64,000 bases of DNA from Gammaproteobacteria bacterium (GTDB taxonomy: Bacteria > Pseudomonadota > Gammaproteobacteria > Eutrophobiales > Eutrophobiaceae), in the NCBI GenBank assembly GCA_965221695.1, contig OZ244905.1:2464001-2528000 (forward strand), read 5' to 3'; not shown here. The text below is the continuation of a report on this DNA, generated by a model with database tools.

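Follow-up and report, generated by a model that had tools for sequence, protein, structure and literature searches.

Gene content and limits of the cluster

The window lies in a 3.54-Mb genome assembled as a single contig, and a Pfam scan of its six-frame open reading frames confirmed almost all of the families named in the preliminary description. A tight run of minus-strand genes leads from 9008 to the window start and comprises an alkene reductase (8013-9008), a small VOC-like protein (7500-7988), a CpeT/CpcT-family protein (6532-7515), an MFS transporter (5193-6539), an exported VOC protein (4016-5146), a flavin amine oxidase with a Tat leader (2417-3907) and a TBDR (2-2212). Divergent from this run, 9158-14697 encodes an FAD-linked oxidase, a tandem alpha/beta hydrolase, a DUF3598_N-like protein (12812-13315, plus strand) and a DUF4437 bicupin. 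The stretch at 19796-46866 begins with a second tandem hydrolase, a VOC-like protein, ALDH, an unknown 237-aa protein (24230-24943), DUF1330 and a CN-hydrolase, continues with a CoA ligase, Amidohydro_2, TRAP DctPQM, a VOC-like paralogue, a CMD-family protein and a family III CoA-transferase, followed by LeuD, LeuC and an AllB/dihydropyrimidinase-type cyclic amidohydrolase (37598-39061), and closes with a methyltransferase and its small partner, HyuA, HyuB and an MFS transporter. An S15 peptidase and a second TBDR (49526-51808) come after 46866, and a GntR/UTRA regulator (39089-39856, minus strand) had been overlooked. All equivalog-type NCBIfam models score below cut-off for these genes; the models that pass are LeuC/LeuD subfamily or domain models only.

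Synteny was assessed for 42 window genes by tblastn against G008 and G022, the two closest relatives with a full-length CpcT-like gene. The G008 region contains 37 of them, with a CpcT-like protein of 96% identity, and the G022 region 33, with one of 69%. The exported VOC gene, the S15 peptidase and the second TBDR are absent from the G022 region. At 14-20 kb, GC content falls to 0.47-0.50, versus 0.53-0.61 across most of the remainder; besides an FGE-sulfatase and two unknown ORFs, this low-GC stretch contains a toxin-antitoxin pair. Neither syntenic region has the toxin, the sulfatase or either of these ORFs. To the left, the cluster extends beyond the window with DUF1838, an MFS-like gene and a further TBDR (genome 2458759-2463499); DUF1838 is a conserved neighbour elsewhere too, in 21 of 78 distant loci carrying a CpcT-like gene. 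From this synteny and these leftward genes, the conserved block therefore begins about 5 kb outside the window's left end, reaches about 46.9 kb and carries a strain-specific insert, which replaces the limits of 1-51808 originally proposed.

Within the insert, the toxin-antitoxin pair (14820-15459, minus strand) combines a Gp49-like toxin (PF05973) with an HI1420-type antidote (PF21716/HTH_3); G008 has the antitoxin only and G022 neither. The FGE-sulfatase-domain protein, with a signal-like N-terminus, and the two family-less ORFs occupy 16300-17349 (minus) and 17611-18556 (plus) at a GC content of 0.47-0.49. The CMD/AhpD-family gene (33402-33995, minus) is found in G022 at 77% identity; in G008, whose region is near-identical in other respects, no copy was detected at E<=1e-10. 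To the right, the cluster is followed by a Fic-domain protein that weakly matches POTRA_2 (53697-55187, minus), a 544-aa protein of no family (55236-56870, minus), a 911-aa MalT-like LuxR regulator (57265-60000, minus) and a third TBDR (60757-62907, plus), most of them syntenic in G008 and not in the G022 region.

The CpcT-like and DUF3598-like proteins

The Pfam match of the CpcT-like protein covers residues 36-210 of 327. In its AlphaFold model (pLDDT 94.1, from a 45-sequence alignment), the N-domain matches CpcT (4o4o) with Z 22.1 and rmsd 2.5 over 185 residues, followed by plant CRL (Z 17.6) and phage CpeT (Z 16.5), while the next calycins (DUF3598, nitrobindin, CpeS) score Z <=10. Foldseek agrees on the CpcT fold, and the bilin-lyase fold suspected earlier is thus borne out by the model. 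The family profile also finds CpcT by sequence (E 1.3e-16), the alignment sharing an N-terminal W/F/N/Q motif, Y-R-x-R, P-G-C, a second Cys and an Asp. A signal-like or lipobox segment opens each of the 45 aligned family sequences, and the family is therefore exported, whereas CpcT is cytoplasmic.

Residues ~219-327 are modelled as a second small barrel (C-domain), which has no Pfam family and whose best structural matches reach just Z ~5. In a library of 1.84 billion proteins, its family has 271 representatives at E<=1e-3; the 150 best comprise 96 of two-domain size (250-420 aa), 45 of <=200 aa, 2 of 201-249 aa and 7 longer ones. Pfam scans of these seven, of the 410-aa P0347 and of an ORF in locus L024 gave three kinds of architecture: CpcT-Cdomain-CpcT (P0273, P0335, P0343, P0367 and P0370), CpcT-Cdomain-VOC (P0300 alone) and VOC-CpcT (L024:11017-12663 alone). 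In P0347 the C-domain precedes the main one of two CpeT stretches, and P0344 has only one CpeT stretch. The VOC domain of P0300 best matches c44, a small VOC family (E down to 1.5e-21), and weakly (E 1e-4) the family of the small VOC-like gene overlapping the 6532 gene's start. A homologue (31-33% identity) of another, exported two-domain VOC family, c19, lies at genome 609423-610466; elsewhere that family adjoins the CpcT-like gene or is fused with a CpcT domain.

The DUF3598-like protein, a member of a large and well-conserved family (924 homologues), is modelled (pLDDT 93.9) as a 10-stranded calycin barrel whose best matches are BFA1, DUF3598 2o62, Ycf58, CpeS (TMq 0.67) and nitrobindins. 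The CpcS-type fold assigned beforehand thus holds; as the calycin fold is common to heme, lipid and bilin binders, it says little on the ligand.

Distribution across genomes

Scanning one genome per species (185,579 species) yielded 305 stretches encoding a relative of the CpcT-like protein, of which 80 were kept with 10-kb flanks and, with the G008 and G022 loci set aside, 78 analysed. The kept loci come from Halieaceae, Pseudohongiella, Thalassotalea, Paraglaciecola and Lysobacterales, and also from Chitinophagales, Saprospiraceae, Pyrinomonadaceae and Blastocatellia; they are not independent (by record title, 10 Pseudohongiella and 10 Pseudomonadales MAGs). By tblastn with window proteins (E<=1e-15 or E<=1e-12, query coverage >=50%), counting neighbours up to the 10-kb ends of the flanks, the co-occurrence that the preliminary description had made its key check was found for the CoA-transferase (48/78), LeuC and the alkene reductase (39 each), ALDH (35), LeuD (33), CN-hydrolase (20), the small VOC-like protein (17), TBDR (16), amine oxidase (15), bicupin (14), YCII (12), the DUF3598-like protein, methyltransferase and 237-aa protein (10 each), FAD oxidase (8), HyuA and Amidohydro_2 (7 each), HyuB (6) and the AllB-type amidohydrolase (4). 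S15, DctP/Q and CMD were found in none of the 78 within these flanks.

Clustering of all locus ORFs, some of them spurious frames in high-GC loci, followed by Pfam and NCBIfam scans, revealed neighbours absent from the window: HMG-CoA-lyase-like (30/78), PuuE/polysaccharide-deacetylase-like (28), HapK-like (23), SDR (22) and isochorismatase-like (20) proteins, CitE, ACAD and MaoC (15 each) and a two-domain exported VOC (11). LeuC (39) and ACAD/MaoC/CitE (15) never share a locus, 24 loci having neither; likewise, no locus combines HMGL (30) with CitE (15), or PuuE-like (28) with AllB-like (4). Alteromonadales-type loci form one co-directional gene string with the CpcT-like gene last. Even sampling of the class found the CpeT family in only 4 of 301 genomes, the window's genome included, so gene adjacency is not background. 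Linkage between the cluster genes is real and stronger than could be known beforehand, and the original observation of one linked cluster was largely right.

The bicupin (13717-14697), Amidohydro_2 (28287-29150) and HyuAB (41543-45469) share 72-82% identity with copies from distant taxa, e.g. Pseudohongiella and Wenzhouxiangellaceae, far above the ~45-60% of other cluster proteins, which suggests that this sub-module was recently transferred horizontally or is very strongly constrained.

Within the genus, the full-length CpcT-like protein occurs in 3 of 23 genomes and a C-domain-only form (open frames of 152-192 aa) in 9, the other 11 giving no match. In locus L004 the C-domain-only gene is flanked by the same neighbours as in the window. 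The AllB-type and DUF3598-like genes occur in 15 and 11 of the 22 other genomes, respectively, and the spacing of these genes equals that of the window in G020, G018, G007, G002 and G004. The remaining cluster is thus retained where the CpcT domain is missing; of the internal arguments, this is the strongest for regarding the domain as an accessory to the pathway rather than its core.

The C-domain-only form in L004-L010 (G020, G010, G016, G002, G007, G018, G005), 71-81% identical over residues ~213-327 and in L004 with its own signal-like N-terminus, is a clean natural domain deletion. The cyclic amidohydrolase orthologue at G004:C1:1670235-1671692 has one in-frame TGA and could reflect a pseudogene, sequencing error or recoding.

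Proposed pathway

The genes suggest a coherent pathway, every step of which we infer. Uptake and periplasmic handling would involve the TBDR, the Tat-exported amine oxidase, exported VOCs, DUF1838 and the CpcT-like protein; ring preparation would employ alkene reductase, SDR, FAD oxidase and ALDH; ring opening and deamidation would fall to an AllB- or PuuE-type cyclic amidohydrolase, optionally ATP-dependent HyuAB, and CN-hydrolase/isochorismatase amidases; finally, a branched dicarboxylate would be assimilated. 2-Alkyl-maleates are substrates of LeuCD-type enzymes and (R)-citramalyl-CoA may be cleaved by HMG-CoA-lyase-like enzymes; an imide with a methyl and a second substituent would give exactly such branched acids. 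Two published routes serve as precedents: PuuE/PgdA-like proteins are described as cyclic imidases, and a pyridine ring in A. nidulans as passing through alkene reductase, SDR, imidase and amidase in this sequence (PMC9304392); the methylsuccinate/itaconate route is given as CoA-transferase, methylsuccinyl-CoA dehydrogenase, hydratase and citramalyl-CoA lyase (PMC12290011).

A C-C lyase, SDR, HapK and PuuE are lacking in the window's cluster and in the G008 and G022 syntenic regions, a gap in the window's version; HMGL and CitE homologues are located elsewhere in the genome. About 106 kb beyond the window's right end, an isochorismatase-like gene lies close to a PuuE-like gene (genome 2633589-2636754). 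As this pair goes with the CpcT-like gene in other taxa, the two may provide imidase and amidase activity in trans. Besides the cluster's HyuAB, the 3.5-Mb genome encodes at least 7 additional HyuA and HyuB paralogues (26-36% identity), at least 6 of them arranged as adjacent pairs, e.g. at genome 2772103-2776180, 51722-55500, 3206971-3210820, 1283341-1287082, 1491071-1494932 and 2444628-2448547, an unusually large set for ATP-dependent hydantoinase/oxoprolinase-type enzymes.

Substrate and significance

Tetrapyrrole-derived pyrroles are quite possibly the substrate, a tentative reading to which two arguments point: oxidised tetrapyrrole is the abundant natural source of methyl-alkyl-maleimides, and to our knowledge every characterised CpcT-family ligand is a linear tetrapyrrole. 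Heme oxygenase, bilin reductase/RCCR, phycobiliprotein and reaction-centre families were not found in the genome, which extends the earlier remark on missing phycobiliprotein and photosynthesis genes genome-wide; this absence fits scavenging, yet gives no positive link to bilins. Several points speak against a bilin substrate: no enzyme known from bilin or chlorophyll catabolism is encoded in the cluster, genomes of the genus have often lost the CpcT domain, and plant homologues are described with non-bilin roles (PMC11606413). The TBDRs also lack the usual heme-receptor motifs, and the S15 peptidase of the suggested chromopeptide step is not conserved. That another N-heterocycle is degraded is almost as likely as the tetrapyrrole reading, and smaller rivals share the remaining probability.

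A literature search, covering few subscription journals, found no description of this CpcT-like family or cluster in heterotrophs, and the part of a treatment of bilin synthesis in heterotrophs available to us makes no mention of T-type lyases (Rockwell et al. 2023, PMC10151467). The cluster, as read from genomes, constitutes a well-defined cross-phylum system without a described function; it has cultured carriers and bears on a long-standing question.
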